In this document: piece after piece, positions 12,577 to 63,275 of the stretch
How the letters are laid out: each line of letters opens with the position of its first letter
How positions within the stretch are numbered: position 1 is the stretch's first letter
Assembly (NCBI GenBank): GCA_000934665.2
Contig: KZ538245.1
Span: 1-64,000, forward strand
Origin: Catajapyx aquilonaris
Taxonomy: Eukaryota
Reading direction: 5' to 3'
DNA length: 64,000 nt
The notes under the pieces: model-generated
What the model was told of the DNA's origin: nothing
Databases searched by the model: none
The model's input: only the letters and a program-made list of their open reading frames with translations
Made by a program: the position numbers and the translations under genes

Positions 12577-12624
12577 AACCTGTAGTACACAAAATGTACT
12601 GTCACTTCTATAGGATAGTGTCAG

Positions 12625-12685
12625 TGAAGCTCAAAATAGCCTCCAAGAAAGGCATAGCCTTTCTTGGAGGCTATTTTGAGCTTCA
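12625..12685. repeat. Perfect 29-bp inverted repeat with a 3-nt loop upstream of IR-B
   Basis: tgaagctcaaaatagcctccaagaaaggc-ata-gcctttcttggaggctattttgagcttca. Confidence 0.9.
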
Positions 12686-13824: not shown

Positions 13825-14007
13825 ATGTCTCTAACGGTCATTTAGTGAGCTCCCCCGGGTGGCTTAGTCTGTCGGAAATTCCCACCCGAAATGAAGCCAG
13901 AGATGGCCCAACTCTGCACGGATAAAGGTGGGAACGCCGAGTGGGGATCGAACCCGGGACCCTTATCCGTGGGCGCGTCCGTTACCGCAGTGCCACTTCA
14001 CCTCCCC
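13825..14007 (-). mobile_element. tRNA-derived SINE, copy 1
   Basis: Minus strand reads ggggaggtgaagTGGCACTGCGG...GGTTCGATCCC (A and B boxes) followed by a body nearly identical to 34533-34717. Confidence 0.8.
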
Positions 14008-14744: not shown

Positions 14745-16297
14745 ATGAGAACCAAGAGCTTTGTATTGTTCCTCATATGCATTGTCATCACATCAGTCTT
14801 TCTTTGCTTGTTTGGTAGCCAAAGACCGACCATACAAACTATTGTCTCGGAGACACACAAGCAGCTTAATAATCTCAAGAATCTCAAGGTACAACCACAG
14901 GCATGTAGAATATGATAATAGAAATAGTCATATACTAATAATGCGATGATTTCGATTATATTTTTATTATTTTCTACACTTGCCTTACATGGTTCATGTT
15001 TCGATGTATTGTACGCACACTGAGAGCAATCAGCTGAAATAATTTATTGACGATTCAGCGTATTTTAAAACAAATTGTTTCATGTTGTTCGCAGGAGAAT
15101 CTTCGTGTGGTAGAGGAGAAGCGCTTGGTTGTAGACACCTCGTATACTCAGCTTTTGGGCTTCACCGATAACCCCTCACTGTACCCAGATGCTCCCTGGA
15201 AAAATGTCACCATTCCACTCATCGTCACAGCTGTAAGTTTATGGCTTTTTTTTCTTTCTAATGCTGCCCACTTATCATTTCCTGTCTCTTTCCCATAGGT
15301 TGATTCAGAGGAGGTGCAACTGGCCATCGGGTTTGTGCGAAATGTGCAACGATTCGTATCTAATCACACGATCATCATTTACAACCTTGGGCTCAGCCAG
15401 TCAGAGCTTGACATTGTGAGTACCGGTACTATTGTAACGTAGTGGCTGAGGTTATCCATGCAAACTTCCATCGTACGAAAAGAGTAATGTGAATGCCACA
15501 TGAATTTTTCAAGTTTGTAAAATATGGAAAATGTTGCAGCTTCTACCCCACTGCAACAGCAGCAAGTGTATCCTGGAGGCTTTCAACTATGACCTCTTCC
15601 CCTCACACGTGAAGGACTCGAGGCTACATGCATATCGACCTCTTATTATTCAGGTGGGGCTACTTCTAAGATGAAGGAAAATGGCCTGGCCGAACTGTTT
15701 ATGAGGATAATTTCATATTATTTTGTTTCCCACCAGATAAACTTAATGCGATCAGGTGCTGTCCTTTGGCTGGATATTGATCGTCGCTTGACTCGAGGGC
15801 AGCTGGAACCATTTGTGTCCCGTGCGGAGAGAGGCGGCGGCATCTTAGCTTGGCCTACTTCCCACCCAACTTCTTCTCTAACGCATCCGAAAATGCTCGA
15901 CTACTTCCGCCTGTCGCCTGAAAACTTTTACTTCCACCACATGGTTCTCCCTTCCCAACTGATCCTTCTGAACACGAGAGCTATTCATCGAAGGGTAATG
16001 ATGCCATGGACTCAGTGTGCTCTGATCAAAGACTGCATTGATCCCATTGGAGCCCAAACTAGTGGGTGCAGATTTGACAAGAAGCCGCACTACAGGTACT
16101 CGGGATGCCATCGGTACGATGCAAGTGCACTGAACATCGTGTTGGGAGTGGCGTTTGATTTCGACGAGGATAGGTACACCGCATTAGGGGGCGAGGCCGG
16201 GAATTTTGCAAGGCCTGTAGGGCAGCTAGATTGGGTACAGCAGCAGGAAGCTCAGAAGAAGATCAATGCGACGGTTGATGCGTACACTGAAGTCTGA
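14745..16297 (+). CDS. Type II membrane protein, DUF1647-like/putative glycosyltransferase-fold; about 5 coding exons
   Basis: N-terminal TM (MRTKSFVLFLICIVITSVFLCLFG); spliced motifs IIIYNLGLS, FPSHVKDSRLHAYRPLIIQ, VLWLD, WTQCALIKDCIDPIGA, CHRYDASALNIVLG. A 5'UTR exon ends near 14281. The family name is from memory of motif similarity, not from a search. Confidence 0.7.
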
Positions 16298-19200: not shown

Positions 19201-21617
19201 TTATAGCCAGCAAGGTAATTGATATTGTCTTGGTACAAAAAAAATATATGCTAATTGATGTACAGGACATGGTTTCATAATGGCTTTTACGTGGTTTGTT
19301 GGAGGCATTTTCATTTTCATTTAAAAAATGTGCCCGCTAAACAATTTTTGAGTCCATAATTGTTGCCCAGTAATATTGTGCGTAATATTTGAAACCACAT
19401 TTTTGAATTTTTGCATCAAAGCTTTTGCAATGCCCAGCGACAACATGTCTTGTGCTCTAGATCTCATCAAAGCACAGTTTGTCTTTCAAGTGCACTTTTC
19501 AAAGGCTGGCTTTCTCATTTAGAACGTTGATTGCCGCAATGTCAATATGTAATATTTCTTCTTTTTTTTTCAAGTTGTGAGGTGGTGACTTTGTTGTATA
19601 GACATAAGGAAATTGCATGATCAGATTTTTCTTGTGATAACAATATACGATTATTTCAAAAAAAAAGAGAAAAAAATGTTGTTATTAATTTTCCGCACCT
19701 ATACCTCAGCGTTGGCGTAACAATATGTTGAACATGATTGGTACTTTAGTCTGTACATTGATTCATTTTGTAACTAATTTTGACCTCTAGCTGGTTTCAG
19801 TAATTAATAGCATTCATTTCTTGTTGCAGGAAAATTTATCAGGATTTCATTTTTTACAGGATATAATTATGATAACAAATGAGCAGATACGATCCTAATT
19901 TTTTTTTCATTTAGGTCCGTTGAAAGTAGTGACACGTGCCGCATTAAGACAAAAGCGAGTATTTTTGATTTTCCTTTCAATAATTGGATCCTGATTTTTC
20001 CGGCAACAAGAAATTGATTGTTGGATGAAAATTTATCAGGTCATCATTTTTACCGGAAGCTGATGACAAATGAGCGGATATTGTTCCAGACTTATTTCGA
20101 GGTCCGTTGAAAGTAGCGACACGTGCCGCCGCGTTATGACAAAAGCGAGTCCTCTTTTTATTTTCTTCTCCTTTCAATAATTGGATTAGAAGTATCGACT
20201 CTCCAGACTTCCTTTATGAAGACATACAAATATGGGATTTGTATTTGGTTGTGACAGAAATAGCAATTTTTCAAGGGGATGCGTATGATAAGCTGTTGCT
20301 CCTGGAAAAAAAAAATGGACAAAAGATTTGGCCTTCTTTTTGTATGCCAATCTTTGAACGGAGCAGAAATCACAATGGGCAGGAAAAGGTTTCAGTTAAG
20401 AAGTATTGTAAGCTACTTTTCCCCTGCTTTATTCTTGAATGTTTGCATAGTATGATCTGGTTTATATTTAAAAAATGATAAATAAAACGTAGGGTATTAT
20501 ATTGCTATAAATAAACTGGCCTTTTTTCTGCTCTCAAGAGAGAAAATCTTTGCGACTGAACTTGTTACCAACTCAGATTGATTACAGTCATGAATATGCG
20601 TCGGTATGGAGTGTGCATGTGACGTTATTCCATGTACTTAATCCGCTCTACTTGTTCAAACCGCTTCTGAGAAAAGTGCATTTTAAAAGAATTGGGAGAG
20701 ATGGCGAGACATGATAATTAGAACACTTGCGCGTGTCAAGTAATATTTTGCCTGCTAATATTTCAGCAAAATTTGTTTTTAATTGGTGGATGTTACTCGC
20801 AACAATGTATAATGACACCTCACCTTTATTTGCCATTTCCTGAAATTACATCTCAAGGATATTCTGTGTCAAGGTGTTGATTACTGTTATCTGGAAAACT
20901 AGCTTTAATTAGTAATAATTTGCGGGCCACCAAACCTTGATGATCAAGAGCCACTTCCCACGAGTTCATTACTGGTTGTAATTGGATTTACGTCAGAGTA
21001 GCTGACACAAAAAAAAAGTTAGTTTTTTTTTTGTATGCTTAAAAAAAATTAATAACTTAAGTGGCTTGGGTCTGCTTGGAGTTCATGTAACATTGTATAC
21101 AGCATGCTGAGGAGCTAAATAAGATGTGCGAAATGCTGTGGGTGGGATATGAGAATGAAACAAAGTGGAAGAGAAGGACGAATCCCTCTAATGTAGACTG
21201 TCGTTCAAACAGATTGGTCTATACACACAGGTATATATATAAAACCTCACACCAAAGTCTAGAGGCTGCGTGGGTGTGACTTTATTACATTCCGACCTCG
21301 AAATTCGATCTAGAGCCCAAGTGGCAGGTGGGAGTATTTTTGTTTGGACTATTTCTCAAGCTACGTGTGGGTCAAACTCAGACAAAAATACACTTAAAAG
21401 CAGGACAACCAAAACTATGTGCCTGACATATCTCAGAAAATTATTGTTTACGCCAAAATCTCTCCGTCGGATGTTTGTCCGATCTGATAGTACGACTATC
21501 ACCCGCACGACTCAGTGGCAGGAGTGTGCAGGAGAATGGTGCGCCATCTGTGGGTGTTGAATAGTACTAATTGGTAAATCTGCCTCCAGCGTGGTCCTAT
21601 CAGGTCGGACAGCCCAG

Positions 21618-21710
21618 CCGAATGCTTCAAAGTGGAATATGTCACGGGGGCCAATGTTCCGGGGGCTAGAAGTCCGGGGGCGAAACGGCGGGGGCGACAA
21701 GTCCGTATAC
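21618..21710. repeat. Dispersed repeat fragment shared with 50175-50470
   Basis: ccgaatgcttca...tggaatatgtcacggggg...ggcgaaacggcgggggcga is present at both loci. Confidence 0.7.
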
Positions 21711-23364
21711 CGTTTCAAATCGCATTCGAGCGAATCTGAGGTTAGGTCGTTATGAAATGGTTCCGCAGCAAACAACTAATGTAACAGAGAGGGTAACGAC
21801 ACATAAAAACAATACCATTGCGTATGTGAACTGTACACATATCTTAATGAAGCAATAATGATGTTGACCAAGGATCTGGTCCGGTTTACTCTTTAAAAAT
21901 TGCGGGTCGTAATCGGTCCCGGCTAGTTGCGTCACAGTTCTTTGAACTTGTTACAGTACAGCAGCTGCCTGCGTAACCATAAGTAACTGGAACTATACAT
22001 ACGTCAGTACTGACCTCTTCAAATATTATTATTATTTTTTTAAACGAAAGGTCACTTTTTAGTTGTAATGATTCAAATAAGTGCGGTGTGTACTGAATTT
22101 CCCGTTGGTTTCTTGGGTGTCTGCACATAAGCCTCTGATGATATTTGCTCCGCAGTAAAAGAGGCTAAGACAACATGATGGTCAGTGGACCGCCTGCTGT
22201 GGAAAGGAGAATCTCTCTGAGAGAGAGAAAAATAAAGTATTGCAGTCTCTTGCTCTTTTCTCAAGGCGGAAATTCGTTGTGGGGTCGGCCACCTTCAAAT
22301 GGGACTCCAGGCCGTGGAAGGAATAAAGACGAGAAGAAATACAAAAGAAACCTGGAAGAAGAAAAAAAAATGAGATTGAAGGAAGCAGTACTGAAGATGC
22401 TGACAGTAACGTCAAGTTACTGTACAGTAATTCATTGCGAAAGTGCAAGATCAGTGACGTTGGGGAGAGATTTTTTTTTGCCAATATAAAGTTTATTTCC
22501 TGTCATTAATATCTAGTTTCTTGCGGAAATTATGAAGCAATATTTTTTTTCTAGTAAATGGTTTAAAAAATAGCATATCAGTACAGATAAGCTGTGAATG
22601 AATATTGCGACATCTTTTTTTATAATGTCGTGTGTCGCATGATATGTCGTTGGTGAAACATGAATGATTACAGGATGTGTATATAGAGCCGGATTATCGT
22701 ATTATTGTAGATAAATTACGTCAATGGGTACTACACAGTTTATATGAAAAAAAATTGAAGAAAAAAAAACTATACAGAAATTAAAGGACAAGTCTCTATA
22801 ATTTAGTACAGTAATTCACAACATACAACATAGTGCATTTCGTGAAGTTTCAATTGCCTATATTTCAGGCATACAGTGTCATTATCAAAATAATAATATG
22901 TTGACACGATCTGTGTACTTCATATGAAAATTTCTGTCTTTAAAGTTGGATTTAATGAGCAAGGTTGTTTCCCAATAATTATTATACGGGGGGTCTATTA
23001 TTAGAGTGTTGAATAATTGAAGGGATGTCAAAAGAAAAGTTTGTAGCCGCGAAAAGTTTTCCCAGGGAAAACTTCATATTTTTGCGTGGGGATTCCCTAA
23101 TTATAATCAAGAGCCAAGTTCAATGTTATTTTTTTTTGTTTATTAAGATCGATTGCATATAGTGACACTGTGCCTGAATTTTCATCTGTGGAGGTGTCTA
23201 ATTCTGGATATTTCTAGACACATCGTTGGGATAACAAGGTCACATTAATTAAATTACTTGAACGTCATTATTGTTGTTGAACATACACATTTTCTGTAAA
23301 TGTTTGATAGTGTTGTTTATGGCTGTCTTTATAAATGTGAAATCGAGTTAAACAATCTATGAGG

Positions 23365-23615
23365 CTTCTGATTGGACAGCAGTATGTTACCGCGACGCTT
23401 CCGATTGGCCCCCAGTTCTGCACATGCGCAATGGGGGGGAGGCAGCGCCTCTGGTGGGTGGGATGAGGAACTATCTACATTAAAATCCTTCGTTGTGATG
23501 CCCCCTTCTGATTGGACCGCAGTATTTGTTACCACGACGATTCCGATTGGCCCCCAGTTCTGCACATGCGCAATGGGGGGAGGCAGCGCCTCTGGTGGGT
23601 TGGATGATGAACTAT
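23365..23615 (+). promoter_or_regulatory. Tandemly duplicated ~143-bp module upstream of a TATA box (tataaa at about 23864)
   Basis: Two copies of ttccgattggcccccagttctgcacatgcgcaatggggggaggcagcgcctctggtgggt; contains inverted CCAAT (attgg) and tgcgca motifs. Confidence 0.5.
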
Positions 23616-23990
23616 TATACTGTACTTTGGGGGCAAAAACGAAATCCATTTTGAAGTCGCTTCTCACATTTTTCAAGCAAGTACCCATGCAGGTATTTTG
23701 TAATGTGTCGAGAGTTACGATCCTGAAAAGGACACGCAGGCGCGAAGGATGATTGAGAAGGAAGATTGGGTGCGGAGGGCAGGGGGGATGAGAGGCTGAG
23801 AGGGGGAGGGAGGAGGGTGAAGTGTATGTGTGTGTGTGGTTGGGGAAAAGTGATGGCGGGGTCTATAAAGAGGCCAGTCCAGGCCGGTTGGGGCCAGTGC
23901 CTCCCAAGAACCCATCATCTTCTCTCTGTCTCTCACGTTGTCTCTCTCCCAGTCCCCTGCATCGAAAAGATCATCAGGCCATCAGGTACA

Positions 23991-26900
23991 ATGTGCTCCT
24001 CGAAAAGAAGCCCCAGCATCCTGATCTGCGCCTGTCTTCTGGCAACCAGTGCTTCACTCGTGTTAGCCAGACCATACTCAGCATCATCATCATCATCATC
24101 TGGACCGTCCTCAACCAACACACACCTGCTCAACGGACTCAGGAGCACACAACCACAGGTGGGTGTTTATCGTGTATATACTACATGACGCAATAACAGC
24201 ATGTCAAGTGCTGTGCAACAAGTAGTTGCGAGCAATAATAAGGGTGCATGCCCTACTTGCTCTGCTGGTCAAATGCGCGGCCAGATTGACGCCGTGGGAT
24301 GGATGCCAAAAGCTTTAAAAATAAAAGTCTGGCAGTTAATAGGAATCAAAAAATAATCACAATTATTCACTGTTGACTCTTAATGTATTTTCCTAATTTT
24401 TTTTCACAAATGAGTGTACATAACATTGCTATTGCATTTTGATCGATTGGTGCGACCTGTTTCCGTTAAGTCATCATCATCTCACTCTGCGAAGGGGTTA
24501 ATCACCACAGTCAAAGTATTCCCAGTAAAAGCTAAGTGGGGCAATTGATTTCGCCATGCACTGACCTAGGTCACTTCTCCCCAGTCTTCACTGGAAACTC
24601 ATTATATACAGCCCCTATGGGAACCTCCATATGAGACAATCAGGGGGGTCATATTAATAATATTGTGCCTAGTTATTTTAATTTGAAACTCATAAACTCA
24701 CATTAATTTCACGTCTCCAACCTTTAGTGGTCAGGTCGTACTCTTGATCGTACTTGCCTGATTCTCATAGTATACTCAATAGTGTGTACCTTTTGGAGCA
24801 AGGATATAACTCCCACGCATACTTCACGAACAATATTTACGACCTCCTCACCATACCTCCTCTAGAGAGGTATTTACTGCTTGTGTTGCAAACATTGCCT
24901 TGTCTTATGTAAGGGTTTGCGACACTCCAGGTTATTGCACGCAGTAAAAAAAATAAAAGTTGATTTACGCCTCTCTAGTTATTTGAGCAATTTTGTTTGA
25001 CATGTGCGTCAGATTTTTTTTAACAAAATTTTTATAAGAATAGCTTTATTAAAAATATTTGTTGCCATTTTTTTTATTCATTCATTTCGAAGCCTATTCA
25101 TTCCTGTTTGGAATGCTGCAAAATGAAAAAATATTGGAATAGACTCAGCGAAAAAAAAAAACAGCTATTCAAGATTGAACTTTTGATTGTATACAGTCCT
25201 CTTGATAGTCTTATAGACGACGAAAGAAGGAAGAAAAATTTGCACATATGTCTATAGTTGATCAAAAATACAGATTTTTTTTGCGATTAGTTTATTTCTT
25301 TCTACACTCTAAGAAATGTCCGGGTTAAATGTATTTATCCCGGAAAAAAGATCACTTTTGTCATGGTTATTTAACCCGGACATTTCTTAGAGTGTAGTGT
25401 AAGACCATGAGTCTATAGCGTTTATGGATCTTAGTTTATCAAAAATACATTATTTTTTTGCGATTTGTTTCAGTACATGTGATTACATCAAGTTACTGTC
25501 GCAATTTTTTATTTATGGTTTGAAAAATATTTACGAGTGCCAAAATAATAGCGATGTAATGACATTTACTGGCCAAACAATCTCTGCTCGTTTATGGCTG
25601 ACACATGAAATGAACCGACTCAATTTTCGATAAGTAACATACGAAGATGACCTTTGAAGCCCATGGATGGGGCCTTACTCCCAGTAGTTTGTGATATGAC
25701 TTTCTGTGAATGAAGCAACGTTTTTTCTCTTCCTATTCCTCTTTGCAATATCACTATCTCACTTTGTTGATAAATGAATATGGAAATTGCGCCTGTTTGA
25801 CTCTCGAGTTCGTTGATAATAATTATATCTTTGTGTGGCCCACCAGAGCGGACTTTGATGGACCCGAAAGAGAGGTCAATTCCCGTCCTTGCTATATGAC
25901 TATGTTCACGGTATAGCCACGCATCACGTGACGGGACACACAAACAGTACACACGCCTCAGCACGTGCGACTTTTCTTGTCACATGTCACACAAAAGAGA
26001 GCCTAAACATCATCGGTTTTCATGATAAACTTTCCCCCCCATCCAAAGAGAGAGATGATGATAAAAATGAGCAGTTGGACTTTTCCCTTTCTTCTGACGT
26101 AAGCAGAAGCTGACCTCTCATGGACGTTGAAGGGATGTCCAGGAAATAGTTCGTTGTTGTGTAATGACCTGAACTTTCTGGATGATACATGTTGTTTACA
26201 TGATAACATTTTTGTATTGTAAAAAAAAAATTGTGTTTCTATATGTTCAGATTTCGGTTTATGATGACAACATGCGTTTGGTATGCCAGAGACGTGATCA
26301 GTTAATAGTTTGTTGTCTCCCGCCGGATGTGTTGTCGGCCCCACATGTTTTTTTTTCTCCCCCCCCCCCCTCCCCCCCTGCGTCATATGACATGTGGTGT
26401 CAAGTGCGTAGTTTGTGGACCACGTTGCGTAAGTTTCTGAAGGGGCCAAAGCCAAGCCCCCTCTTCCGATTGGCCCGGCCTGGGACTTCACCAGGGGTTG
26501 ATCCTATATACAATGCTGTATATGCATGATGATGACGATGATACATTACAGGGTGGTCCAACATTCTAATAAGAAACACTGGACATAAAAAATTATTAAG
26601 CTGCTTTCCAGTATTTTAAAAAATGGGATTGATTTCGTCACAAATTGTAATTGGGCAACACTGCCCAGCCCGCTCCCAACCTGGACGTTGCCGCAACTAG
26701 ATGGCGCGCATTTCTGTGCGCACTACTGCCACCTAACTACATGCACGTTGGTGATGAGTCAACTCCAACGTGTAGCCAATTCTACAGATGTGTCTGTGCA
26801 GTATTTCTGGGGTCAACTTTGGCGTAAATTGTAGCTGCTACTTTACTATATTAAATTCTGTCATTTTGTGGCCCACCCTGTACTTATATATCAAGCGTGC

Positions 26901-28488
26901 TGCTATAGCAAGGCAGGTCCCCTCGGCGAGAGCTTGTGTATATGGCATGGCCATAGGCAGCCTTGAACTCTAAGCTTTGGCATTTCGCCCTTCAAACAGA
27001 TTGGCAACAAACAAGTTGATTCATTCATTCAATGCATCCGTTTGTTATCCTCGCACGTCTCATAGTATATAGTAGATGCGTATCGTCTGGGAACGGACAA
27101 AAACAAATAATACGCCGTATCGACCTGTGTACGTACGACAAAGGTGGTGCAATACCCAAACGTTTCAATAACAAAAATTTTTTGGCAACACTGTCCAGCC
27201 CGCTCTCAAATTGGACATAGTATGATTTGCCACTAACAGATGGCGCGCATCTACACTACTGCCATCTCACATGGCAACTGTAACTATACATGCACGTTGG
27301 TGATGAGTCAACACGCCTATCAGATGATTAATAGTAGAAATAATTTTTGATAAGATATTCGCCACCATTTTGAAACCATTTCACACAACTTTTTTTTAAA
27401 AAATGATGCAATTGCCAGAGAGTGTGACCTCTTGATGCAACAGCTTAACACATTAATAACCTATCCCAACGTTCGGACATTATATAAAATTGTGATGCGC
27501 AAGTTACAAGCTGATTGACGTACGGACTGATCCGGGACTATATACGCGTATATATATATGTGTGTGTACTTATATAGCGACCCGCACTTTATAAATACAT
27601 ATCCGCACCTCAGCCGGGAAGGATGTGAGTCTATGAATGGTCCAGCAAACGGTCAAGGGAACACAATGACCTAAAACACTGGCAAATCCGTGTGCCCTTG
27701 AATGTATACTGTGCGCATAATATCCTGCGTCTAAATTAAGACACAGTGGAACACATTCACACGTACGATTTATATTTGCATATATAGAATTGGCTGGGAA
27801 GTGACTTTGTCCCTACACGACTCGCGTAGTCACTCCACATGCACGTTGGTGATGACTCATCACCAACGTGCATGTAGTATCCCTAGTTACCACCATGGCA
27901 GCAGTGTGCGGAGAGTGACGATGCGCGCCATCTGTTTGTAGCAAATAGTACTAAGTCCAAGTGACGGGCAGTGTTGCCAAATTTTTTCGCTACTATTAAA
28001 GGGCAAGACAAATAAATGTTGTTGATTTTATATTATATGAAACTTATGGATGTTTTTTTTTTTGTTATCTTTCCAGAGGATGAAGCGCACCCTAACAGAA
28101 GTGGTTGGACTGTCCAAGATCTGCTCCAACAATACCCCTTGTGGATGGGAGGTGTACATACCATTTTCGCGTCGTTTCGACTACTTCATGGACAACACGT
28201 GAGTAAACATTTAAAAAAAAATCCAAATAATAATTGAAATGCTCAATGCCCATCATCAATTAAGCTCTTTAACTTTAAATTGCAATTCATTACAATGTGA
28301 ACTAATGTACTTTTTTTCTTCCTCTCTTCTCTCTGTACAGTTGCAAATGCCCAGCAAGCACCGCATGTGTCCTAACGGACGACGACCTGTCCGTCAGCGC
28401 GTATGTGTACCGATGCCGTCCTCTGGGTTCGTCTGCAGGCATGGAGACCTTCACCTCAGGAGTCAATGAGGATGAGACATCCAAATAA
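23991..28488 (+). CDS. Secreted six-cysteine propeptide (uncharacterised); exons 23991-24158, 28077-28198, 28341-28488
   Basis: Signal peptide (ILICACLLATSASLVLA), Ser-rich linker, furin-type RMKR, then ICSNNTPCGWEVYIPFSRRFDYFMDNTCKCPASTACVLTDDDLSVSAYVYRC. Splice phases are compatible (0, 2) and a TATA box lies about 125 bp upstream. Confidence 0.8.
25305..25394. mobile_element. 90-bp MITE with TA TSD
   Basis: TA|cactctaagaaatgtccgggttaaat...atttaacccggacatttcttagagtg|TA. Confidence 0.85.
26655..27985. repeat. Three related repeat copies (about 26655-26775, 27183-27315, 27837-27985 inverted) in the intron of the secreted-peptide gene
   Basis: Shared ggcaacactg..atggcgcgcat..tactgcca..catgcacgttggtgatgagtca. 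Confidence 0.7.
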
Positions 28489-32853: not shown

Positions 32854-32928
32854 NNNNNNNNNNNNNNNNNNNNNNNNNNNNNNNNNNNNNNNNNNNNNNN
32901 NNNNNNNNNNNNNNNNNNNNNNNNNNNN
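32854..32928. other. Assembly gap (N run) inside the TRAM1/Ars2 divergent promoter region
   Basis: 75 N bases next to G-runs; YY1-type motifs (aaatatggcggc, aaacatggcgg) at about 33003-33041; probable non-coding Ars2 exon donor at about 33202. Confidence 0.9.
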
Positions 32929-44170: not shown

Positions 44171-44563
44171 GACTAAAAGTGACAAGGCGAAAGAAATTTT
44201 CCAGAAGAACAATGGAGCTATAAATAATATTCCACTCATTGAATTCGGTCGTGTAACATTATCAATTTGAGCAATGCGAGGAGTTGTGGCAATTGGTACT
44301 TATCGCATTTGCAGGAGGCTATTCCCATATCGACTTACCCACACTGATTTATTGACTTTATTGACTTTTTCGTTTTGCGGCAATAAATCGTGCACACTGG
44401 TTCGCACTTGAAGGTTATTTACACCCGTACTCACCTGCAAGTCTCTCACTGTAACCATGCAATTCATGCGTCTAATATTCATTACTAGATTTGCAGCTCT
44501 TGTTTATTTTTGGACCAAATCGTGTACCGTGTATGGCACACACACCACACTTGGGTTCAAAAA

Positions 44564-47500
44564 ATGTTTGGACTTGCATCTTGTCTGTTGGCCGCACTTT
44601 TGATTCAAGTGATGGGGTCGACAAAAGTGACATTGACCTCTGCAGGTCACCTGGAGGACCTCATGTTTGACCTGGTTCAACATGTGTCAGCTGAGGACTG
44701 CTCGTTGGTCCTTGCATGGGACGGACCTGTTATGTCCGAGTCCCTCCAGAAGCTTCTGCGTGTCTCGGGTCAGGTCAGGTACCGACCTGTTGTGACCACC
44801 AGGATGACCTCGTTTGAATTCAACTGGCGTGACTACCCTGGTGTACGGTCGGACGACTGGTTGTACTCCTTCGACACCATGCCTCCAGAACTACGGTCCA
44901 ACCTGTGGCCAGGCCCGTGCTCCTTCAACTTACTGGCACCTAGTACTGGGTGAGTCATACTCTGCCAGTGGATAGATTGGACCAATAAGAATCGAAAATG
45001 TAGAGGCGTGAAATGTCGACAAACTAACCGTTAACGATGTACAGAGCATCAAAGACAGCACTGCCGTCAGATATGAGAAGACCGTAACTCATTATCCACT
45101 TCCCTTGCGGCGAGAAAAGACATCAAGTGTTACCGAGAGCATCCAAGAGGTGGCGTTGGGGGAAGGGGGAAAAAGGAACGGCATCCCAACTCCACCTGTT
45201 GGGTGCTTTTGGTACCACTGCTTTTTTTCTCGCCGCAAGGGGAAGTGGACATTGAGTTACGGTCTTCTCATATCTGACGGCAGTGCTGTCTTTGATGCTC
45301 TGTACATCGTTAACGGTTAGTTTGTCGACATTTCACGCCTCTACATTTTCGATTCGTATTGGTCCAATCTATCCACTGACTCACTCTGCAGATCCGTACG
45401 GCAACTCGTGGTACACTTGGCGTCCGCTGTCCGTACTGTGAATCTCCGTGACAAGTTCATGTTCTGGATGCCGCCGAAGACATCACCGACGTTCATGCTG
45501 GATCCGCCGTTGAATGGTATCCGGCTCAAACTGGCTGCCGTACCGGTACGCAACGCCGTACAGTTAAGCACCATCTGTTTCTACTGCAACAACGGTGAAC
45601 CTACGATACTCGATCTCGGACGACACCGGTCCAACATTGCACTTCAGACCAGTGCATCGTTGTACCCCGACAACTCCCGGAACTTCTACGGGAAGACCGT
45701 GTCCATATGCAACATCGTGGACGTCGATCTGTCCGGAGCACGACGTAACCTGGAAGCGGGCAACACCCACGCTCTGTCGATCCAACAACGGATGGTGACA
45801 ATGTACGAAGACTTCTTCAACTTCACAGCCACCATATACGTACCGGAGCTGTCCGAGAACATACTGGAGTCACGTCTACCCAACGGAAGCTGGAGCGGTT
45901 CGGTGGACACGATCCAGACTGGGAAGGCCGTCGGTGTGCTCATATCGTACATCACATCCGAGGCCATACCTTTCGTCGAGGTGCTGTACCCTCTGGTCCC
46001 ATCGTACCTGTCATTCGTCACCAGAAAGGCCAGGGATGTCATCAGGGTCACGGTGTTTCTGGCCCCGTTCACCGCAGTCACATGGGGCATGATCACCGTG
46101 GCCATCGTGGTATCGCTGCTCTTCATGTACGGCGTCGTCAATCGCAGGTGCGGTCCACCGACGACGACCCACCAGATGTCGCTCAGGAAGGCTCTTCAGG
46201 TACGGGCTTAATCCTATTCGCATCGTCAAAAGCGAGAGGAAAGTGGACCCGTTCCGGAACAGGCACACGTCCATGTAGATCCGTTCTGGAACCGATCCAC
46301 TACTTCCATAGAGCCGTTCTGGAACCGGCCCACTTCCATAGACCAGTAACAGGCCCAACTTCCATGCAGACCCGTTCCGGAACCGGCCCACTTCCACAGA
46401 CCCGCTCCGGAACCGGCACACGTCCATATAGATCCGTTCTGGAACCGATCCACTACTTCCATAGAGCCGTTCTGGAACCGGCCCACTTCCATAGACCAGT
46501 AACAGGCCCAAATTCCATGTAGACCCGTTCCGGAACCGGCCCACTTCCACAGACCCGCTCCGGAACCGGCACACGTCCATATAGATCCGTTCTGGAACCG
46601 GTCCACTTCCACAGACCCGCTCCGGAACCGGCACACGTCCATATAGATCCGTTCTGGAACCGGTCCACTCCCATAGACCTGTTCTGGAGCCGATCCACTA
46701 CTTCCACAGACCCGTTCTGGAACCGGCCCACTTCCATACGACCAGTTCCAGAACAGGCCCAACTTCCATAATTATATAGACCCGTTCTGGAATCGGTCCA
46801 CTTTTAAGGTTCCCCGAAGGAAGAAGAGAGTTACCGAGATAAATTATTATCATCAAATTTCGTGGTTTCATTGATGCCTTGGCATGGCAACCGGTTGCCG
46901 TGGAAAACCCGGTTGCCATGGTAACGGAGCTTATTGGGGGCGATAAGGAATAAGCAAGAGCGAACAAACAAATGTCGCTTTTTATCGTTTGTGTCATGGT
47001 AACCAAACATGGACAAACGACGAACCAAATGAACAAACATATTGTCTTTTTATAAAATGGCATGGCAACCGGTTGCCATGGAAAACCATATGGTAACGAA
47101 ACCTGGACAAGGAAGCAAGCGAACGAACAAACATTGCTTTTTTTTATCATTTATATGACATATGGCAACCGGTTGTCATGGTAATCGAACCTGGACAAGC
47201 AAGCAAGCAAGCAAACGAACAAACGAACAAACCGCTGCCTTTTTTCATATTTACATATGACATTGCAACCGGTTGCCATGGCCCATATGGTATAGTAGCC
47301 AAACATGGAAAAGGCGAACACACGAACGAACGAACACGTTGTCTTTTTTTTTATCACACATGGCATGGCAACAGGTTGCTTGTCCAGGTTTCGTTACCAT
47401 ATGGCAACCGGTTGCCATGGAAAAAACGAGTTGCAATGGTAACGATAACCTGAACAAGTAAAAGAGCAAGCGAACGAAAAACAACCAAACATTATTGCCT

Positions 47501-48752
47501 TTTTATAATACAAGTAAGGATAGAGATATTTTGAAGCCCATTATCTCGGTAACGATGCTTCGGAGAGGTCAAATGTCATATCTTTACTGACATGATGTGA
47601 CCCCTCCTGACCTATAACGAGTCCTCAGAAGTTGTGACCTGTACCCAGCACACTGTATATTATATATAACTTTCCCCTCAGGTTGTTCTTCGCGAATTTG
47701 TGGAGCAGTCGATGCCGTTGCCGGACATGGACGCCCTCCGATGCTTCTTCGTGTTCCTGGCCTTCTTCGCCGTCGTGGTCGTCTGCGGCTACAAGTCCAA
47801 GCTGGTCGCGTTCCTGACCTCCCCGGACAAGGAGGTGGTGCCCAAGACCTTCTCGGAGCTGGTCTCCTCGGGCTGGGACGTCGGGATGCCCTTCATCGAC
47901 TTCACAGCCATGCACATCATGTCCAAGTCCGTCCAGTCCGACATGAGCTCCTTCCTCACCAACACAGCCGAGAACGTCGGTACCATCCGGAAGTGCTTCA
48001 GAACCGTCCTGGACGACGACTTCGCCTGCGTGGCCTACGACTACTTCCTGGAGCTGGAGAGAAACAGCTTCATCACATCTGACGGCACATCCAAGGTCTG
48101 TCCAAGTCTGAAACATATAGAAAAACAAACCGGAAAATGACGTAAACGACCAGAAATCATTTTGTGACCCCTAGACACGCGCGGCAACCCACATTGCACG
48201 TGCAATGCGGGTTGCCGCGCGTGTCTAGGGGCACAAAATGATTTCTGGTCGTTTTCCGGGCACAGTCGCACAAACTTGGACGAATTTTGTGCCCCCTAGA
48301 CACGCGCGGCAACCCGCATTGCACGCGCAATGTGGGTTGCCGCGCGTGTCTTAGGGGCCACAAAATTACTTCTCGCTTGTTTTGACCTTCCTTTTCCGTC
48401 CAAGGTGTACTGGTCCAAGGCGTCCACGTACGATTTTTACATCACGTCGATGCAAGGTCGTGGTCAGGTGTTCGCAGTGGCGTACCAGGCCATGCACGTT
48501 CGGACCTTCGAGAGCGACGTGATCATGAAGGCCATCAGAGACGAGATGTGGGGGAAGTTCATCACGTCCTTGTTCCAACAGAGGAGACTCAAGCGGTACC
48601 GGTACTTCACTGGAGACGAGTACATACTCTCCATGTACAAGCTCTCGTCCGTCTTCATGCTCTGGGGTGTCGGTCTCTGGATGTCTCTTCTGGCTATTGG
48701 ATGCGAGGTTGTGACTGGCTGGCTCTGCTTGCCCACACTCTCGGAAGGTTGA
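44564..48752 (+). CDS. Divergent ionotropic receptor IR-C; introns 44950-45391, 46200-47681, 48096-48404
   Basis: Signal peptide; FDTMPPELRS shared with IR-A/B; LPNGSWSGSV, FLAPFTAVTW, REFVEQ, VVVCGYKSKLVAFLT and an M4 helix. Frames join across all three introns. Confidence 0.85.
44966..45378. mobile_element. 413-bp MITE with ~150-bp near-perfect TIRs occupying almost all of IR-C intron 1
   Basis: cagtggatagattggaccaata...ccttgcggcgagaaaa is mirrored by ttttctcgccgcaagg...tattggtccaatctatccactg. Confidence 0.9.
46245..46800. repeat. ~29-33-bp GC-rich minisatellite with higher-order periodicity (gttccggaaccggcccacttccatagaccc)
   Basis: Tandem array in IR-C intron 2; the source of the repetitive spurious ORFs here. 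Confidence 0.9.
46880..47500. repeat. Degenerate repeats built on the palindrome catggcaaccggttgccatg
   Basis: Motif recurs at about 46883, 47060, 47162, 47265 and 47401. Confidence 0.8.
48145..48370. repeat. Two near-perfect palindromes filling IR-C intron 3
   Basis: ttttgtg..ccctagacacgcgcggcaaccc.cattgcacg.gcaatg.gggttgccgcgcgtgtct.aggggc.cacaaaa occurs twice. Confidence 0.85.
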
Positions 48753-49120: not shown

Positions 49121-49513
49121 CCTGCGGCGCACAAGGTGGACAGCCCTGCACAATAAGCGGTCCTTCTTTCAATTAACTAAAATCATCACGCAATGAGACG
49201 TACCGTGCCTGGCATGGCCACATGACGGACAGTACTGGTGCGGTCACCCAAAGGTCATACAGATACCATCGCACATGGAGCGCGAAAATGTATTTCCGCC
49301 TTTCCTTTCCAATTTCGGCTGTGACATTATAACCCAACCAAACATTTTGCCAACGAGGACAATGGTATAAATCAACTGATTAGTCCAACAATGTGTTCAA
49401 TTGAAATGCCACTCATTAGACATGATGATGATGAGACACACCTTCGAACCAACTGCGTGCTGTGTCACAACAAAACAGTTCTGATTCGTACGTGCTACGT
49501 GGTCCTGTTGGGT

Positions 49514-51273
49514 ATGGACCCGCCGGTACAACCAAGCATCAACGAGTCCTTCTGCGCAAGGGACGACCACGAGACGTCTCGAGTGTGTCTGACAGAGGCA
49601 TGGGCACCCTCGTGTTGTTACCCGGATTACCCTCAGTACTTCAACATGATCGCCGGGTCATACTGGCTCCTCCTTTGCATTGTCGGCGGATTTGGCAACA
49701 TGATGGTCCTGGTGGCCATACCGTACGCCAGATGGAGATGCACCGACCCTCGAAGTCCCCTGAAGATAGAGCTGCACCACCGTGCTGCTCCTCAGTCTCA
49801 GCCTGGCCGATTGTCTCTACTCCTTCATCACCCTTGGAGGATCGGCCATCACCATGCTCAACAGGAAATGGGTTCTAGGAACCTCCCTATGCTACATCTT
49901 CGCCTTCACTAGCCACTTGCTAGGGGTAGCCTCGCCGTACTCGCTGGCAGCCGCTACAATGAGCAGGTAAAAGCCACAATAACGTTCGTTACAAAGCCAC
50001 AATAACGTTCGTTCCGCTCAAAAGAACGATGGAACTGTGGTGGCCATCAGGAGCCGAATGAATTGATCTTCGAGCCTTACAGCGGAATCCCATTTGCAAT
50101 CGGTGTCTGGCTAGTGGCCAGTACAGTGCCGATACTAATAGCCGTGAGTACATATTACAAGTACATTATGGAATCCGGACCTTTCGCCCCCGCCGTTTCG
50201 CCCCGGACTTTCAGTCCCGGAGTATTCGCCCCCGTGACACATTCTACCAGTTGAATGTGTCACGGGGGCGAATCCACCGGGGCGAAAGATCCGGATCCAG
50301 GCCGAATGCTTCACAGTATCCGGATTTCACCCCCGCCGTTTCCCGGCGGATTCGCCCCCGTGACGCATTCTATTAGTGGAATATGTCGCGGGGGCGAATA
50401 CGCCGGGGACTGAGAGTCCGGGAGCGAAACGGCGGGGGCGAAAGATCCGGATACTTTGAAGCATTCGGCTGCGAATTTCTAGAGAAGCTTGTGTGTAGCC
50501 TGGAAACGGCGGGGACGGACGCTACATTTTTTTGCACTAATCTGCTGGCATCACAGGTGCAGAATGGTTTTGGCTACAGTCGCATACAAGGTAACTGCCT
50601 CATAATCAACATGAACCAAGTGACAGCCGATGTCATCTACGGTATCGCAATTGGTCTGCCATGGATATCTGTGCTTGCATGTCTCGCCATGATCTGGATC
50701 AAGCTGAACCAGAACTGGACCAGGTTGAAGCAGTTTAAGTGAGTTTTGGCAGACACTCGAGGGCAAAGTGGCCATTTTGTTGACAACTGAAGCAGACACT
50801 CGGGGGCAAAGTGGCCCTTTTTTAACAATTGAAGCAATTTTGTTGGCCAGCACTTTCAGATGCTTCATACTAAAGTATATTGTGGTGTCCACTCATATAC
50901 AGAGACATAGGAAAGACAACTCTTCAGGAAGTAAAGGAGCGTGAGAAGAGGATGGCCATTCTTCTGGCCTTTTTGGGTGCTGCATACTCCAGCACCACAG
51001 CACCAGTGGTGGTCATCTACGTCTGCTGCACCGGTGGTCCTTGGGCCAAGCCATACATTTACTTCGCATTTTTCACCCTCTACTACTACGTTATCAATGT
51101 CTTCATTTACATCTACAGGTATTATTCCAGATGGATAGTTTTGCAGGAGGAAATTAATTAATTTCGTTCATTTGCGCAGGATAAACAGCTACAGAGAAGC
51201 GTTCGTATTGTTTTACCACGACATGTCCAATTGGGTTAATGAGAGGCTGAGGAATCTATTGGGCGTTAAATGA
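49514..51273 (+). pseudogene. Tre1/Moody-like rhodopsin-class GPCR paralog 1, with a 4-bp frameshift near 49766
   Basis: Same five-exon layout as paralogs 2 and 3. It has ctgaagATAGagctgcacc where paralog 2 has ctcaagagctgtacg, so the coding sequence jumps between ORFs 49391-49912 and 49782-49970. Confidence 0.7.
50170..50470. mobile_element. Inverted-repeat-rich dispersed element in GPCR-1 intron 2
   Basis: tccgga.ctttcgcccccgccgtttcg ... cgaaacggcgggggcgaaagatccgga; related to 21618-21710. Confidence 0.7.
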
Positions 51274-52139: not shown

Positions 52140-52694
52140 CATCTGGTAAATAGGCTAGACCCTTCCAACACACACAATCTCGTTACACCAGAGCGTGGTT
52201 CTGTGGTAGCGCATCGGACTCTCGATCTAAGGGTCCTGGGATCTAATCCCGGGGCTTTTTCCGTTGTGGTCTGAGAAGAAGAATTTTTTTTTGCAGCCGA
52301 CAGTGACGTAGGCGAGTGGTCATCGTCACCTCCTTGGGGTCATCAGGACGGTCATTCGGCATCACTGTTTGGATTAATAAAATAATAAATCCCCCACCCG
52401 CTGTCGGTGGAGATGAGCAGATCGTCGACGCGGTTTTAGATAGTCTACTTTCATGTAATAAATAAAAATAATTTTATTTCTTCTTCCCCACCCCTCCCTC
52501 CAGTGCCCCTCTCTATTGACCCGGAAGATGAAGAGGTCGCGCCGTTCATGATGGCAACAAATATTTTTACTCTCACTCTCACCCGGGATTTGAACCCGGA
52601 TCTCTAGATTGAGAGTCGAGAGCGCTGCTCCCACGGCCAGCTCGCACCATCCACTCTCACGTGTCAATCGGAAGGTGTAGCCTATTTACCAATG
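52140..52694. mobile_element. TIR-bounded element carrying tRNA-like cassettes; a second, inverted partial copy ends at 53587
   Basis: catctggtaaataggctagacccttcc ... ggaaggtgtagcctatttaccaatg; 53455-53587 is the reverse complement of about 52140-52275. Confidence 0.7.
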
Positions 52695-55409
52695 CAATTT
52701 TTTGATGGTTTTAACTTCACTTCATTTATCATACTCTTATATTGTAAGGGTTGTATTGGAACTACGTCACATTCATATACTAATATATAACCGGCGAGGC
52801 ATTCTTCACATCGAGAGATATACTGTATGTGTAGCTATCTATGTACTATGTACATTCTCATTACGAAAGATCCGACAGATGGAGACCGAGGTAGGGCCTG
52901 CCCCCAGACCAAAAACCTAATACTAGGGCCTTTCAGGTCAAAGGTCAGGCTGAAACAAACCATTGAAAATGCCCTAAAAAGTGTGCCGATTAATTTGCAT
53001 GTGCTGCTGATTTGATGGGACCTATAGTTTAAATAGCACGGTTAAATATTTGGGGGGCTAATGGGTTTGAGAATGGGAACTCCCTGGTATAAGACAAATG
53101 TAGGGACTATGGGGTGCGTAGGGCGGGGGCTGCCGGGATGGACAACAACAAGCGAAGCCACTTGATCATTTTGATTACTTTTTTTTATTTTACTTTTTTC
53201 TTCGAAAAAAGTGACCGCCCCCTCCCATTAAGCAGGTGTCTTAAAAATTTCCAAAAAAAATTCTCCCCTCCCCCTCCTGTCCTCCCCCTCTCCCTCTCCC
53301 TCTCCCTCTCCACCCCTCCCCCCCTCTTCGCTGCTCATCCTCCGACACCTTCTGATGAAGAAGTGTTGGGGAAACTGCGACGAAGGAACAGTCGCCATCT
53401 TGGCCAGAGATGACGGATGCAAATTTTTTTTTTCTTCTTCTTCTTCTTCTTCTCAGACCGCAACCGAAGAAGCCCCGGGATTAGATCCCAGGACCCTTCG
53501 ATCGAGAGTGCGATGCGCTACCACAGAACCACGCTCTGGTGTAACGAGATTGCGTGTGTTGGAAGGGTCTAGCCTATTTACCAGATGCAGTATTCATTAC
53601 AATAATATTTTAAAGGGAAGGAAAAAGGACTTGTACGAGTAGATAAAATCGAAAATCGGGAAAATAATGAGGCAGTCTCCAGAGGGATTCGAACCCGCAA
53701 CCTCAGATCAGGAGGAAGACGCCTTAGCCCCACGCCCACAGGCTTCTTGTATTTTCCTCCCTTGTAAAACATGTACTGCCCATTCCGTCAGAAAATCGGA
53801 GGGAAAATGACTGGGAGGTTTTGGCTATAAGATTTTTATGGCTCCTAATTTATTTATTTATTTATTTATTTATTTATTCGCCTTTACAAATGCAGGTTAT
53901 TAAAATCTACGCCACTTGTACTGTACTAGCAGGTTCCGGCAGGTTCTGGATGCGAGATTTTTTTTATTGGCTCCCTGTTCATTCTCAGAGCATATACCCA
54001 TAGCCTACGAATCTGACGATTGCGAAGATATCAAATGTACGTAATAAGAAATTTAATTGCACTTTGTCACAACATATTGCAAGTTTCAAATATCGTTTAT
54101 TTTGTGCACCATGTCGAATCCACCTGTGGAAGTATGAAATCTTTTATGCTTATACTTATTTAATTGAGAAAAATAATTGGCACCGGTCTGGGATCGAACG
54201 TGGGACCTTACAATTAGCAAGAGAAGACGCTAACCATCCGCCTACAAGCTACCAACAGATATTCATTGCTTGGAAGTTGTAGTTCCTCTGCAGGATTGGA
54301 TTATTAGGCATATCTCTATATATAGGCAGTCTGGTTGCTTATTGATTTGAAAACAATATTATTGATCAGGATTATAACGAAATCATGCCTATACCAGTAC
54401 AGTACGTCATGTTTATGAATATGGAAACTGCTTATCTAGTTACCGACATGTATTGTCTGCTGAGACCATAAGTGTGAGATAACTATTATGAGAGGTGTTG
54501 CATAATGGAAATAACGTGACCTAACAATACATATTGTAATGATGTGTCTCCAACAATCAAATGTATGACAGCATAATCTTTTCCAGCGCATACTGTATTT
54601 CTGGAGAGAACATCATTACCTCATCCTGTAGTTTATTCATCCCAATTTGTCCCATTATCAGGTTAAATGTAGGGTAAAATCATTTCATAATTTTTTTTCC
54701 TTCTATTCAGCTTTATGAAAGTAAATTTTCTTACATAATTTATATTTATAATTATTGTACATCACAAGCCTTTAATTAGAACAGTTACTTACATTTTTCA
54801 CATTATAGTTTACCACAACTCCTTATTCTCTCGTTGAATCAATAATAGGCAAAATTATCTAGAAATTATTGTGAGAAATTGTTTTCATTACTCTTTGAGC
54901 AAATGTGGTTTTTTTTACAAATAATAATTACTTATTGAAATAAATAATTTTTTTTGAGTATTTGTGTTTCATACATTTCAAGTACAGTAGTATGCACATG
55001 CACTTTTATTTATTATAAATAAATCCGGGATATATTTTGTGAACTCTCCGCACATCTGCATTTCCTGACCGGTTTTTCGCAGACATGTTTTTCGCAGAAG
55101 TAATTAATATTGTGAAATTTCTAAATATAGTTTTCAAAGAATTTGAACACATACGCACATGTTATTGCCCTCGGTTAAGTAATATGTTTACGGTTGCAAA
55201 ACAAAATAATACGTGAAGCATGTCTGACAGATATAATAATATTATCCTGTCACAATATTGTCACAAAGTTTACGTCTGGAACACAATGTTAGAAATGTCT
55301 ATTGTCATTGAAATATAAGCGACACTATTCACATGTCAATCACAAGTAAAAGTGGACAGGTCAAATACAAAACAGGTTCCACACAGTTTGAATACAAACA
55401 CTCTGAAAC

Positions 55410-56602: not shown

Positions 56603-56979
56603 ATTTATTTGTGTACATGCCGAACACTGATTTGTATATAAACGAACACTTATGTTGGTGAGTTGTAAGTTGAACCTTTTCCGCAAAATATACGATTAGT
56701 ATTTGCAACAACTTCCTGTAATTACGGCCACTTATTTGCTCAGTCGGTTTCACGATCAATACTCCAAATAGGACATGTTATTCGCATATCAACTGCGTAC
56801 AATGCGATTTAGTTGCGACACTACCATCGACTCTGCTGCGTTTGACACATCGCAAATTGGAGGACAATGTACTCTTCGTGCGGGAGCAACAACATGACCA
56901 TCAGTTTTCTTGGCAGGACAATGCCGTACGTAATTAACTATTGTCATTCCTCCGCCAATCATCGGCTCAGTCTGCTGCA

Positions 56980-58245
56980 ATGGCAAACGGCAGCTTCAAC
57001 GTTACATACTTTTGCGCAAAAGACGACCAGGAGACTTCTCGTGTGTGCCTGACCGAATCATGGGCACCGTCATGTTGCTATCCGCCGTACCCGTCATATT
57101 TCGCCGTGATTATGGGAACGTACTGGCTCATCATGGGAATCGTCGGAGGGTTTGGAAACCTCATGGTGCTGATAGCCTTGCCGTATGCCAGAAGAAAGTG
57201 CACGGATCCTCGTAGCCCACTGAAGAGCAGCACAACGGTCCTTCTGCTGAGTCTGAGCCTCTCGGATTGTCTCATATGCTTCATCGTCATCGGTCCGTCA
57301 GCTATCGTTACGTTCATCGGAAAATGGTGCCTCGGATATAAATTCTGCTACTTTTTCGCCTTCAACTATCATCTGCTAGGATTAGCATCACCGTACTCGA
57401 TGGCAGCAGCTACAATAAACAGGTAATTGGCGATCCAAATTTTTCTGAAATTTGCGTTAGTTGTACAAACGTGTACCGCATTTTCTGTTAATTAAAAAGG
57501 GCGATGAAGCTGTGGTGTCCTGCCGCAACGGACAAGATATTTGAGCCGTACAGCAGTCTCCCGGTAGTACTTGGCGTATGGATTCTATCAAGTTTAGTGC
57601 CCATATTAGCCGCTGTAAGTATTAACAGCGCTACGTACTAATTGCGACTAATGATAATTTTAAAATGTGCAGGTCCATGATGACATCGGATACAGTCGAA
57701 TCCAAGGCGGATGCGTTATAATCACAGCGAACCTTCCGATTTCAAGCACTCTATTCGGAATAGCAATGTGTCTTCCGCTTATTGCGGTGCTTGTTTGCCT
57801 CGTACTAATCTGGATCAGGCTCAACAAAAATTGGTCGGAACTGAAGCAATTCAAGTACGAATTACTTCCCCGATTATTCACGGCACAGTAACCACACGCT
57901 GTCTTATTACAGAGGCATCAGCCAGACTACGCTACAGGAGTTAAAACGCAGGGAAAAGCGAATGGCGAACCTATTGATGCTTTTGGCCGCCACTTATTTT
58001 ACGTCGATTGCACCGATTTTCGCTTTTTACGCATTCAGCGAAGGAGGACCGTGGGTTCAACCTAACATCTACTTCACGTTCCTTACAGTCGACTACTTTG
58101 CGGTCAACGTGTTCCTCTACTTCTACAGGTAAAGGATAATCCGCAGCATAAATCCAACCCGGCTAATTTTCAATCTCTCCGCAGGATAAAGAGCTATCGA
58201 GATGCAATGGCACTGTTCTACAAAGACATGAGCTGTACGAAATAA
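56980..58245 (+). CDS. Tre1/Moody-like GPCR paralog 3
   Basis: MANGSFNVT (N-glycosylation sequons), GFGNLMVL, LSLSLSDC, AATINR, KRREKRMA, NVFLYFYRIKSYRDA; five exons. Confidence 0.8.
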
Positions 58246-58771: not shown

Positions 58772-62625
<3,854 letters not shown>

Positions 62626-62960: not shown

Positions 62961-63275
62961 ACATAAGATGCGCAAACTTCTGTCGGCGCCTTTGATGTCC
63001 GCGTCTCTCTGTTTGGGCCCGTTGCCCAGGATGGCGGCCATTTTGAAGTGTGGGGAACGCCAACGAGTACAGGCAAAAATATGGTCCGCCATCTTTGATT
63101 CGCGCGTGTTCTTGCCGTGTAGTTGCCATGGCCGCCAAAACCATCAAAGATGGCGGACCATATTTTTGCCAGCACCATATATTTATACCTCGTTGGCGTT
63201 CCCCACACTTCAAAATGGCCGCCAGCCTTGGCAACGCCACAAACAGAGAGACGCGGAAATCGAATGTTTGCGCCG
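62961..63275. mobile_element. Second copy of the fold-back repeat found in the IR-B intron
   Basis: Shared sequence with 11145-11468; the ORF-track peptides at both loci match (e.g. RKLLSAPLM..LCLGPL..AAILKCGERQR). Confidence 0.8.

Follow-up and report, generated by a model that had tools for sequence, protein, structure and literature searches.

How new introns originate is an open question, and the best-documented route is their creation by transposons. Transposons that generate introns on insertion are termed introners (Gozashti et al. 2022, PMC9860276), and in the sections of that paper drawn upon here introner families with target-site duplications or inverted ends amount to 49 of 130 and 72 of 177. 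Another route is the repair of double-strand breaks, blunt or staggered, which gave rise to neointrons in Daphnia pulex; according to the parts of the source that deal with them, those made at staggered breaks retain direct repeats of 4-12 bp (Li et al. 2014, PMC4202315). Fold-back priming at breaks can produce inverted duplications, and synthesis-dependent end joining takes place at hairpin-forming sequences (PMC10622511 and PMC5728401). In the non-conventional and intermediate introns of euglenids, RNA structure brings the intron ends together (excerpts of PMC3935182 and PMC4770533). We compare with these systems intron 1 of IR-C, a plus-strand gene that is one of three ionotropic-receptor-like paralogs (the other two, IR-A and IR-B, lie on the minus strand) in a stretch of 64,000 nucleotides from Catajapyx aquilonaris (contig KZ538245.1, positions 1 to 64,000), hereafter called the window. 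A palindrome fills most of this intron, and the first-pass annotation had seen in it a single miniature inverted-repeat transposable element (MITE) of 413 bp which, on insertion, had made the intron. The reading that we favour, with confidence about evenly balanced, is another one: a MITE of high copy number entered an intron that was already there, after which one flank of the intron was replaced, through fold-back repair, by a mirror copy of the other. Read in this way, the feature would be a further instance of familiar phenomena, the insertion of a MITE into an intron and local fold-back duplication.

The intron, its parts and the two exons beside it are as follows.

44564..44949, plus strand: IR-C exon 1, opening with the ATG and with its final 2 bases belonging to a Gly codon (open reading frame and tblastn)
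44950..45391, plus strand: IR-C intron 1, 442 bp, GT..AG, phase 2, predicted from the frame and the gene model
44950..44955, plus strand: donor GTGAGT, with its reverse complement ACTCAC at 45379-45384
44956..44965, plus strand: 10-nt segment present on the left side only (CATACTCTGC), containing ACTCTGC at 44959-44965
44966..45060, plus strand: outer arm on the left, 95 nt, of single or low copy number
45061..45284, no strand assigned: MITE core, ~224 bp, high copy, with inverted ends of its own
45285..45378, plus strand: outer arm on the right, mirroring the left one over 94-95 nt
45379..45391, plus strand: 3′ end of intron 1, ACTCAC followed by TCTGCAG, pyrimidine-rich, with acceptor CAG
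45392..46199, plus strand: IR-C exon 2 (open reading frame and tblastn; the spliced model is open)

Intron 1 starts with GTGAGTCA and finishes with CTCTGCAG, i.e. its borders are GTGAGT...CAG. Splicing of 44949 to 45392 restores the Gly codon (GG+A) and the reading frame; the upstream frame stops at a TGA directly after the proposed donor, and the downstream frame is open from within the intron. The palindrome extends over 44966-45378 (413 bp), has the termini CAGTGG...CCACTG and consists of arms of 139 nt (44966-45104 and 45240-45378) that are 98% complementary, with a perfect 17-nt inverted pair further in. The 22-nt arm end occurs within the window at these two sites only, against an expectation of 0 by chance. 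Outside the palindrome there remain 16 + 13 = 29 bp of intron. Two likenesses between these remnants, both pointed out in the first-pass annotation, could be traced. The heptamer ACTCTGC is indeed found on both flanks (44959-65 and 45383-89); it abuts the left end of the palindrome and lies 4 nt off its right end. The first eight nucleotides of the intron (44950-57) do have a mirror, TGACTCAC, at 45377-84, but the GTGAGT/ACTCAC mirror requires a 10-nt gap in the left side. Since a MAFFT alignment of the two ends of intron 1 did not recover this gapped mirror, we regard it as suggestive only.

Copy number was assessed with contigs from three DNA runs, all of one sample and one study, placed on 44450-46200, and a fourth run (X5), of unknown kind and carrying the same species label, was likewise compared with this region. 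The comparison sees copies of at least 90% identity, copies of the outer arms below that value lying outside its reach; such contigs drop rare variants, and their k of 31 was deduced from the contig ends. In the DNA runs, summed contig depth reached 9,001-27,918 in four bins of 45040-45275 as against 22-35 over the exons; beside the core it was 21-60 (44981-45039) and 55-92 (45335-45393). Per DNA run, 217-224 contigs with heterogeneous loose ends matched the region. Those from other loci end their match at 45061 on the left and at 45283/45284 on the right, and the onward flanks of these other copies agree with their consensus at 0.42-0.55 only, so that copies of the core sit at many different loci. 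The points at which these other copies cease to match give the ends of the core, and their flanks, where a target-site duplication would be sought, are seen only as this low-agreement consensus. X5 contributed 3 contigs, each on the core (45061-45284) at 90-95% identity and none on unique gene sequence. The inverted ends of the core, 45061-45104 and 45240-45283, are complementary at 42 of 44 positions (mismatches at 45092 and 45094).

The outer arms, which differ by 1 mismatch in 95 (44988/45356), are connected to unique sequence by two contigs. The left one (44450-45018) enters the left arm by 53 nt and the right one (45333-46200) begins 46 nt inside the right arm; both are unbranched, show 0 differences, were obtained in 3/3 DNA runs and have the depth of single-copy sequence, 23.5-35.2. 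Their ends are those that a k = 31 graph would give if neither arm had any copy besides the other, the two differing at 44988 (+30 = 45018). The multi-copy MITE is the inner ~224 bp only, and the outer arms of 95 nt are locus-specific as far as copies of at least 90% identity are concerned. The same contigs bear on the possibility of an artefact, in which library preparation or assembly would have generated the mirrored arms as a chimeric fold-back. Assemblies are known to be prone to error where palindromes surround repeats, and reads and assembly probably share one sample. But both junctions between arm and unique sequence are present in independent k-mer contigs of all three runs, the ends at 45018 and 45333 agree with the single arm mismatch and k = 31, and each arm leads into a unique flank of its own, one into exon 1 and the other into exon 2. 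Because both junctions show single-copy depth in the read contigs, we consider an artefact highly improbable.

What sits mid-intron, at 45061-45284, is therefore a member of a high-copy MITE of ~224 bp. The core has the short length, the terminal inverted repeats and the occurrence at many loci (in one sample) that characterize MITEs, whereas the 413-bp palindrome as a whole does not exist in many copies of at least 90% identity; the view of intron 1 as one 413-bp MITE cannot be kept, as multi-copy sequence is confined to 45061-45283/4 and includes neither 44966-45060 nor 45285-45378. Between the ends of the core and the splice sites there are 111 and 108 nt. Without the core, intron 1 would measure ~218 nt, and without one arm as well ~123 nt, which falls within the range of 68-1482 nt covered by the eight other introns of the three genes (68, 177, 68, 176, 398, 81, 1482 and 309 nt). 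The argument that the intron must be MITE-made because only 29 bp are left, fewer than in any other intron, had the bases outside the palindrome right but no longer compels, given that removal of the real MITE leaves ~218 bp. In common with introners, IR-C intron 1 is a GT..AG intron, apparently lineage-specific, that houses a short element which is non-autonomous and has inverted ends; the host, too, is an arthropod, copepods being among the introner carriers named in the part of PMC9860276 used here, and neighbouring introns of the IR cluster show the classic duplication over AG/GT. It differs from introners in that the repeated part stops well short of the splice sites, which are supplied neither by the core ends nor by a target-site duplication, and in that the unit which does reach them belongs to no family and lacks a junction-spanning duplication; its splicing is predicted.

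According to the favoured reading, a MITE would first have inserted into a pre-existing GT..AG spliceosomal intron. A break beside the MITE would have come next, at which the inverted ends of the element snapped back and primed repair. The polymerase would then have copied ~95-110 nt of one intron flank in inverted orientation, and this copy would have overwritten the opposite flank plus one copy of the MITE target-site duplication. In a fourth step, end joining of the microhomology-mediated or templated kind would have connected the new end with the opposite side. Its scars would be the GTGAGT/ACTCAC mirror, the ACTCTGC repeat of 7 nt and the 10 nucleotides that the left side has in excess; the proposed site of joining is the donor GTGAGT, which would be why the mirror stops exactly at the exon border. 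The MITE step is the one with data behind it; the break, the fold-back and the joining we infer. Fold-back would account for the single-copy arms, the seamless palindrome, the missing duplication and the near-total loss of one flank. At this locus the core is bordered by mirror-image flanks (...AGCA / core / TGCT...) without a direct repeat, and the palindrome continues through both core borders without a seam. The absence of a direct repeat is what a fold-back copy predicts, whereas insertion into a pre-existing palindrome predicts a duplication. Two letters of the core, at 45121 and 45123, are missing from all other placed copies, which indicates that the core is not a brand-new copy. As in the fold-back duplications of PMC10622511 and PMC5728401, an inverted repeat (here the MITE ends) would have primed the inverted copying of a flank, and the junctions would bear short templated insertions and microhomology. 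The cases described there differ in scale, being mostly large chromosomal duplications or repair scars of a few nucleotides; by analogy with them, the present one would be an interstitial extension of a MITE, by ~100 nt, inside an intron.

A pre-existing palindrome is the premise of a reading with nested elements. An older MITE with long arms (CAGTGG...CCACTG, with ACTCTGC as its target-site duplication) would have resided in an older intron, and the 224-bp MITE would later have entered its centre; gene conversion would have kept the arms ~99% alike and erased the inner duplication, and deletions would have trimmed the old intron to 29 nt. Ends of the CAGTGG type, which we take to resemble those of hAT-type MITEs, and a 7-nt flanking repeat are present, arm copies of less than 90% identity would have escaped the read-contig comparison, and the window is rich in palindromes (33 inverted-repeat pairs within 1.5 kb). 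On the other hand, the right copy of ACTCTGC stands 4 nt away from the arm end, and a search of the 64-kb window at word size 7 gave no second copy of the arm, nor of the core, not even a diverged one. In a metagenome collection, likewise, neither the arm end nor the core end (22 nt each) had a single exact match. As this reading also requires three extra events (an exactly central nesting, conversion and trimming), we judge it improbable, less so only than an artefact.

Another possibility is that intron 1 was created in one step. A break at CTGG^ATCC in an uninterrupted exon would have been filled by palindromic DNA, this being either a MITE copy that, together with a flank, had been folded back while repair synthesis was under way, or a derivative of the MITE with long arms that transposed once. 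The filler would by chance have ended in GTGAGT... and ...CAG, and the outcome would be introner-like, or a 'blunt' neointron of the Daphnia type with mirror-image ends. In its favour, the position of intron 1 is found in IR-C only among the three paralogs, the palindrome leaves no more than 29 bp of the intron uncovered, and close to the acceptor there is a mirror of the donor. Daphnia neointrons at blunt breaks have no flanking repeats, as stated in the relevant part of PMC4202315, so that IR-C intron 1 could be of the blunt type; introners are known from animals, copepods among them, and only part of their families have target-site duplications or inverted ends (PMC9860276, same sections as above). 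The cluster, moreover, includes three introns with direct repeats of 7-11 bp over AG/GT, which head the following list.

11483-11086, minus strand: IR-B intron of 398 nt, 7-nt direct repeat AG/GTCAG at both ends
7882-7706, minus strand: IR-A intron 2, 177 nt, 11-nt direct repeat CATTCAG/GTTG at its borders
48096-48404, plus strand: IR-C intron 3, 309 nt, 8-nt direct repeat TCCAAG/GT at both ends
46200-47681, plus strand: IR-C intron 2, 1482 nt, 6-nt junction repeat TCAG/GT

IR-A reads without interruption through the codons at which the 398-nt intron interrupts IR-B (8100-8140), and the body of that intron is palindromic and 81-87% identical to a palindromic element at 62961-63274; by its sequence, the IR-B intron is a clean case of MITE-associated intron gain. 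The 177-nt intron of IR-A has 24% GC, is rich in (TCAA)n and contains no palindrome; IR-B is uninterrupted there (10840-10860), and we class it as an intron gain of the insertion type. Thus two of the three introns are missing from the 77%-identical paralog and one of them has a MITE-like repeated body. IR-C intron 3 consists largely of two copies of a palindromic unit of ~110 nt (48144-48254 and 48283-48383), and neither IR-A nor IR-B has an intron at its position. These junction repeats of 7-11 bp, which span AG/GT, match the signatures of introners and of staggered breaks as given in the sections used of PMC9860276 and PMC4202315, and the IR-A, IR-B and IR-C introns concerned, in arthropod genes like those of Daphnia, correspond to its staggered type. 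There are differences: the Daphnia gains were proven by intron-free alleles in populations, whereas those of the IR genes are known from the comparison of paralogs, and the terms 'inverted repeat', 'hairpin' and 'transposable' occur 0 times in the main text of PMC4202315. Judged by such signatures, that the cluster carries insertion-made introns is beyond reasonable doubt. With regard to IR-C intron 2, we also observed a long tandem repeat with reiterated peptide-like units in all frames (about 46210-46800) and an additional inverted repeat (47086-47404).

These neighbours bring out what speaks against a one-step creation of intron 1. Its junction-spanning direct repeat is of 1 nt only, compared to 7, 8 and 11 nt around AG/GT in the three nearby insertion-made introns, and its exon context, CTGG^ATCC, is the least consensus-like of nine introns. 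The palindromic unit has no family, its outer arms being single or low copy. As the flanking contigs are unbranched, the 31-mers of 44950-45018 and 45333-45391 do not recur at any recent donor locus, and the DNA-run contigs reveal no source for the intron ends. ACTCTGC is not in the exon target and so cannot be a duplication of it. Finally, the 18 nt that are left after removal of the palindrome and one ACTCTGC carry an in-frame TGA; being neither exon nor intron, they would have to be imported with the insert too. We therefore see a creation in one step as possible but rather unlikely. The same holds, slightly more so, for its most specific form, a 'hairpin introner': that a MITE folded back together with a flank dropped into an uninterrupted exon and supplied both splice signals is a doubtful proposition, it is an equally tentative one that the arm end then served as the donor GTGAGT with its mirror ACTCAC contributing to the pyrimidine tract upstream of the acceptor, and we think it unlikely as well that such an insert would zip both splice sites together in the pre-mRNA.

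Turning back to the favoured origin, a MITE inserted into an old intron and extended by fold-back repair, several points weigh against it. No MITE-free or arm-free allele was seen among the read contigs (no joints of this kind), from which rare variants drop out, and no intron-bearing ortholog was seen. The three DNA runs are possibly the source of the assembly and would then not be independent of it, and in two of them the contig of this locus itself for 45019-45060 is not displayed, which makes the depth figures coarse. The CAGTGG start and the adjoining ACTCTGC resemble the inverted-repeat end and target-site duplication of a transposed unit, and by our own arithmetic ACTCTGC would be repeated there by chance with a probability of ~4^-7, to be multiplied by a small number of offsets, which makes about 1e-3. 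As the intron positions of IR-C are unshared and the cluster gains introns, the prior for gain is higher. A mirror that ends exactly at the donor would, in addition, require a special microhomology join. The idea of a MITE-created intron retains part of its basis, in that the intron is IR-C-specific, its palindrome contains a genuine high-copy MITE and the cluster has insertion-made introns; what fails is the link to the splice sites, since the repeated element amounts to the inner ~224 bp, away from them, and the junction repeat is 1 nt. For this genome in general the notion of a MITE-made intron has some plausibility, but in the case of IR-C intron 1 it is not supported. Under the reading that we favour, the intron would not be MITE-made and the hairpin would be a by-product that the spliceosome must tolerate, a view in which we place about as much trust as doubt.

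The first-pass annotation had further suggested that the stem, by bringing donor and acceptor together, might assist splicing. The predicted RNA fold of the region is very stable, with -358.9 kcal/mol versus -137 +/- 5.8 for shuffled sequences (z = -38). In the partition function, donor 44950-44955 pairs with 45379-45384 at a probability of ~0.65 (unpaired probability 0-0.34) and the acceptor AG is paired at ~0.35. With its donor paired at equilibrium, the stem would hinder the binding of U1, not help it, and a gain from joined intron ends would need U1 to bind before the second arm is transcribed, ~430 nt later. The likeness to euglenid introns is limited to the bringing together of the ends by RNA structure; as described in the excerpts of PMC3935182 and PMC4770533, euglenid introns have non-canonical borders and a removal mechanism that is not known, whereas IR-C intron 1 has the consensus borders and an animal host. 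A near-perfect RNA hairpin of ~150 bp in the pre-mRNA of a chemoreceptor may also give rise to small RNAs directed at the MITE family. Rfam gave no family match within intron 1; two sub-threshold microRNA-like matches fall on other palindromes, at 47376-47461 and 48156-48240.

The two paralogs used in these comparisons are the following.

6842-9100, minus strand: IR-A, 647 aa
9963-12540, minus strand: IR-B, 652 aa

Removal of introns 44950-45391, 46200-47681 and 48096-48404 from IR-C gives an uninterrupted protein of ~650 aa. IR-A and IR-B are 76.8% identical to each other, and IR-C is 26-27% identical to either. PF00060 (ligand-gated ion channel), scanned on single exons, gives a mixed picture for the putative ionotropic receptors: an IR-B exon passes with 31.6 bits at a cut-off of 30.8, while IR-C (17.8-18.4 bits) and IR-A (19.8 bits) remain under it. 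A search for relatives of IR-C exon 2 returned 669 candidates, none of which had E <= 0.001 within the length band of 147-471 aa. The nine modelled IR introns represent seven positions. Only introns 1 and 3 are common to IR-A and IR-B, and in the three-protein alignment 0/3 positions of IR-C are common to IR-A or IR-B. That both paralogs lack an intron at the site homologous to IR-C intron 1 was confirmed: each is spanned across the junction by one tblastn high-scoring segment pair, and the protein alignment shows a 1-residue gap only, although it has to be kept in mind that the paralogs are no more than 26-27% identical to IR-C. Two further origins were considered and rejected. Sliding of the intron from IR-A/B intron 1 would have to cover 50 alignment columns (139 vs 189), and intronization of former coding sequence does not fit with an IR-C that loses no residues at the junction.

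As to the rest of the window, the longest of the inverted-repeat pairs has arms of 144 nt at 96%, and palindromic MITE-like structures are also present at 52140-53587, 50173-50469, 1802-1972, 25302-25397, 12625-12685 and 26736-27960. Ribophorin II (OST subunit 2) is represented by an open exon of 392 aa on the minus strand at 59672-60850; its top matches, none of them above 48% identity, come from insects, chelicerates, crustaceans and myriapods, with the best, 48%, to insects, from which it follows that the protein collection contains no close relative of this arthropod. IR-C orthologs whose gene structure would be informative are for this reason unlikely to be found in that collection. Two open frames, 49325-49912 and 56938-57426, are similar, with a common Cys-rich N-terminal stretch followed by hydrophobic segments, and look like putative paralogous exons of membrane receptors. 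Runs of N mark assembly gaps at 32854-32928 (75) and at 28777 (1).

What the locus teaches in the first place is caution: a palindrome that fills an intron mimics a MITE-made intron, and it is copy number that shows only its centre to be mobile. If the one-step rival were true, a hairpin made by repair could supply both splice sites at once, and a hairpin introner would be a way of making new introns that dispenses with target-site duplications as well as with a specialized introner family. The more valuable lead is not intron 1 but the cluster-wide evidence for recent insertion-driven intron gain; with three introns of insertion signature in a single receptor cluster, this genome is promising for the study of ongoing intron gain.

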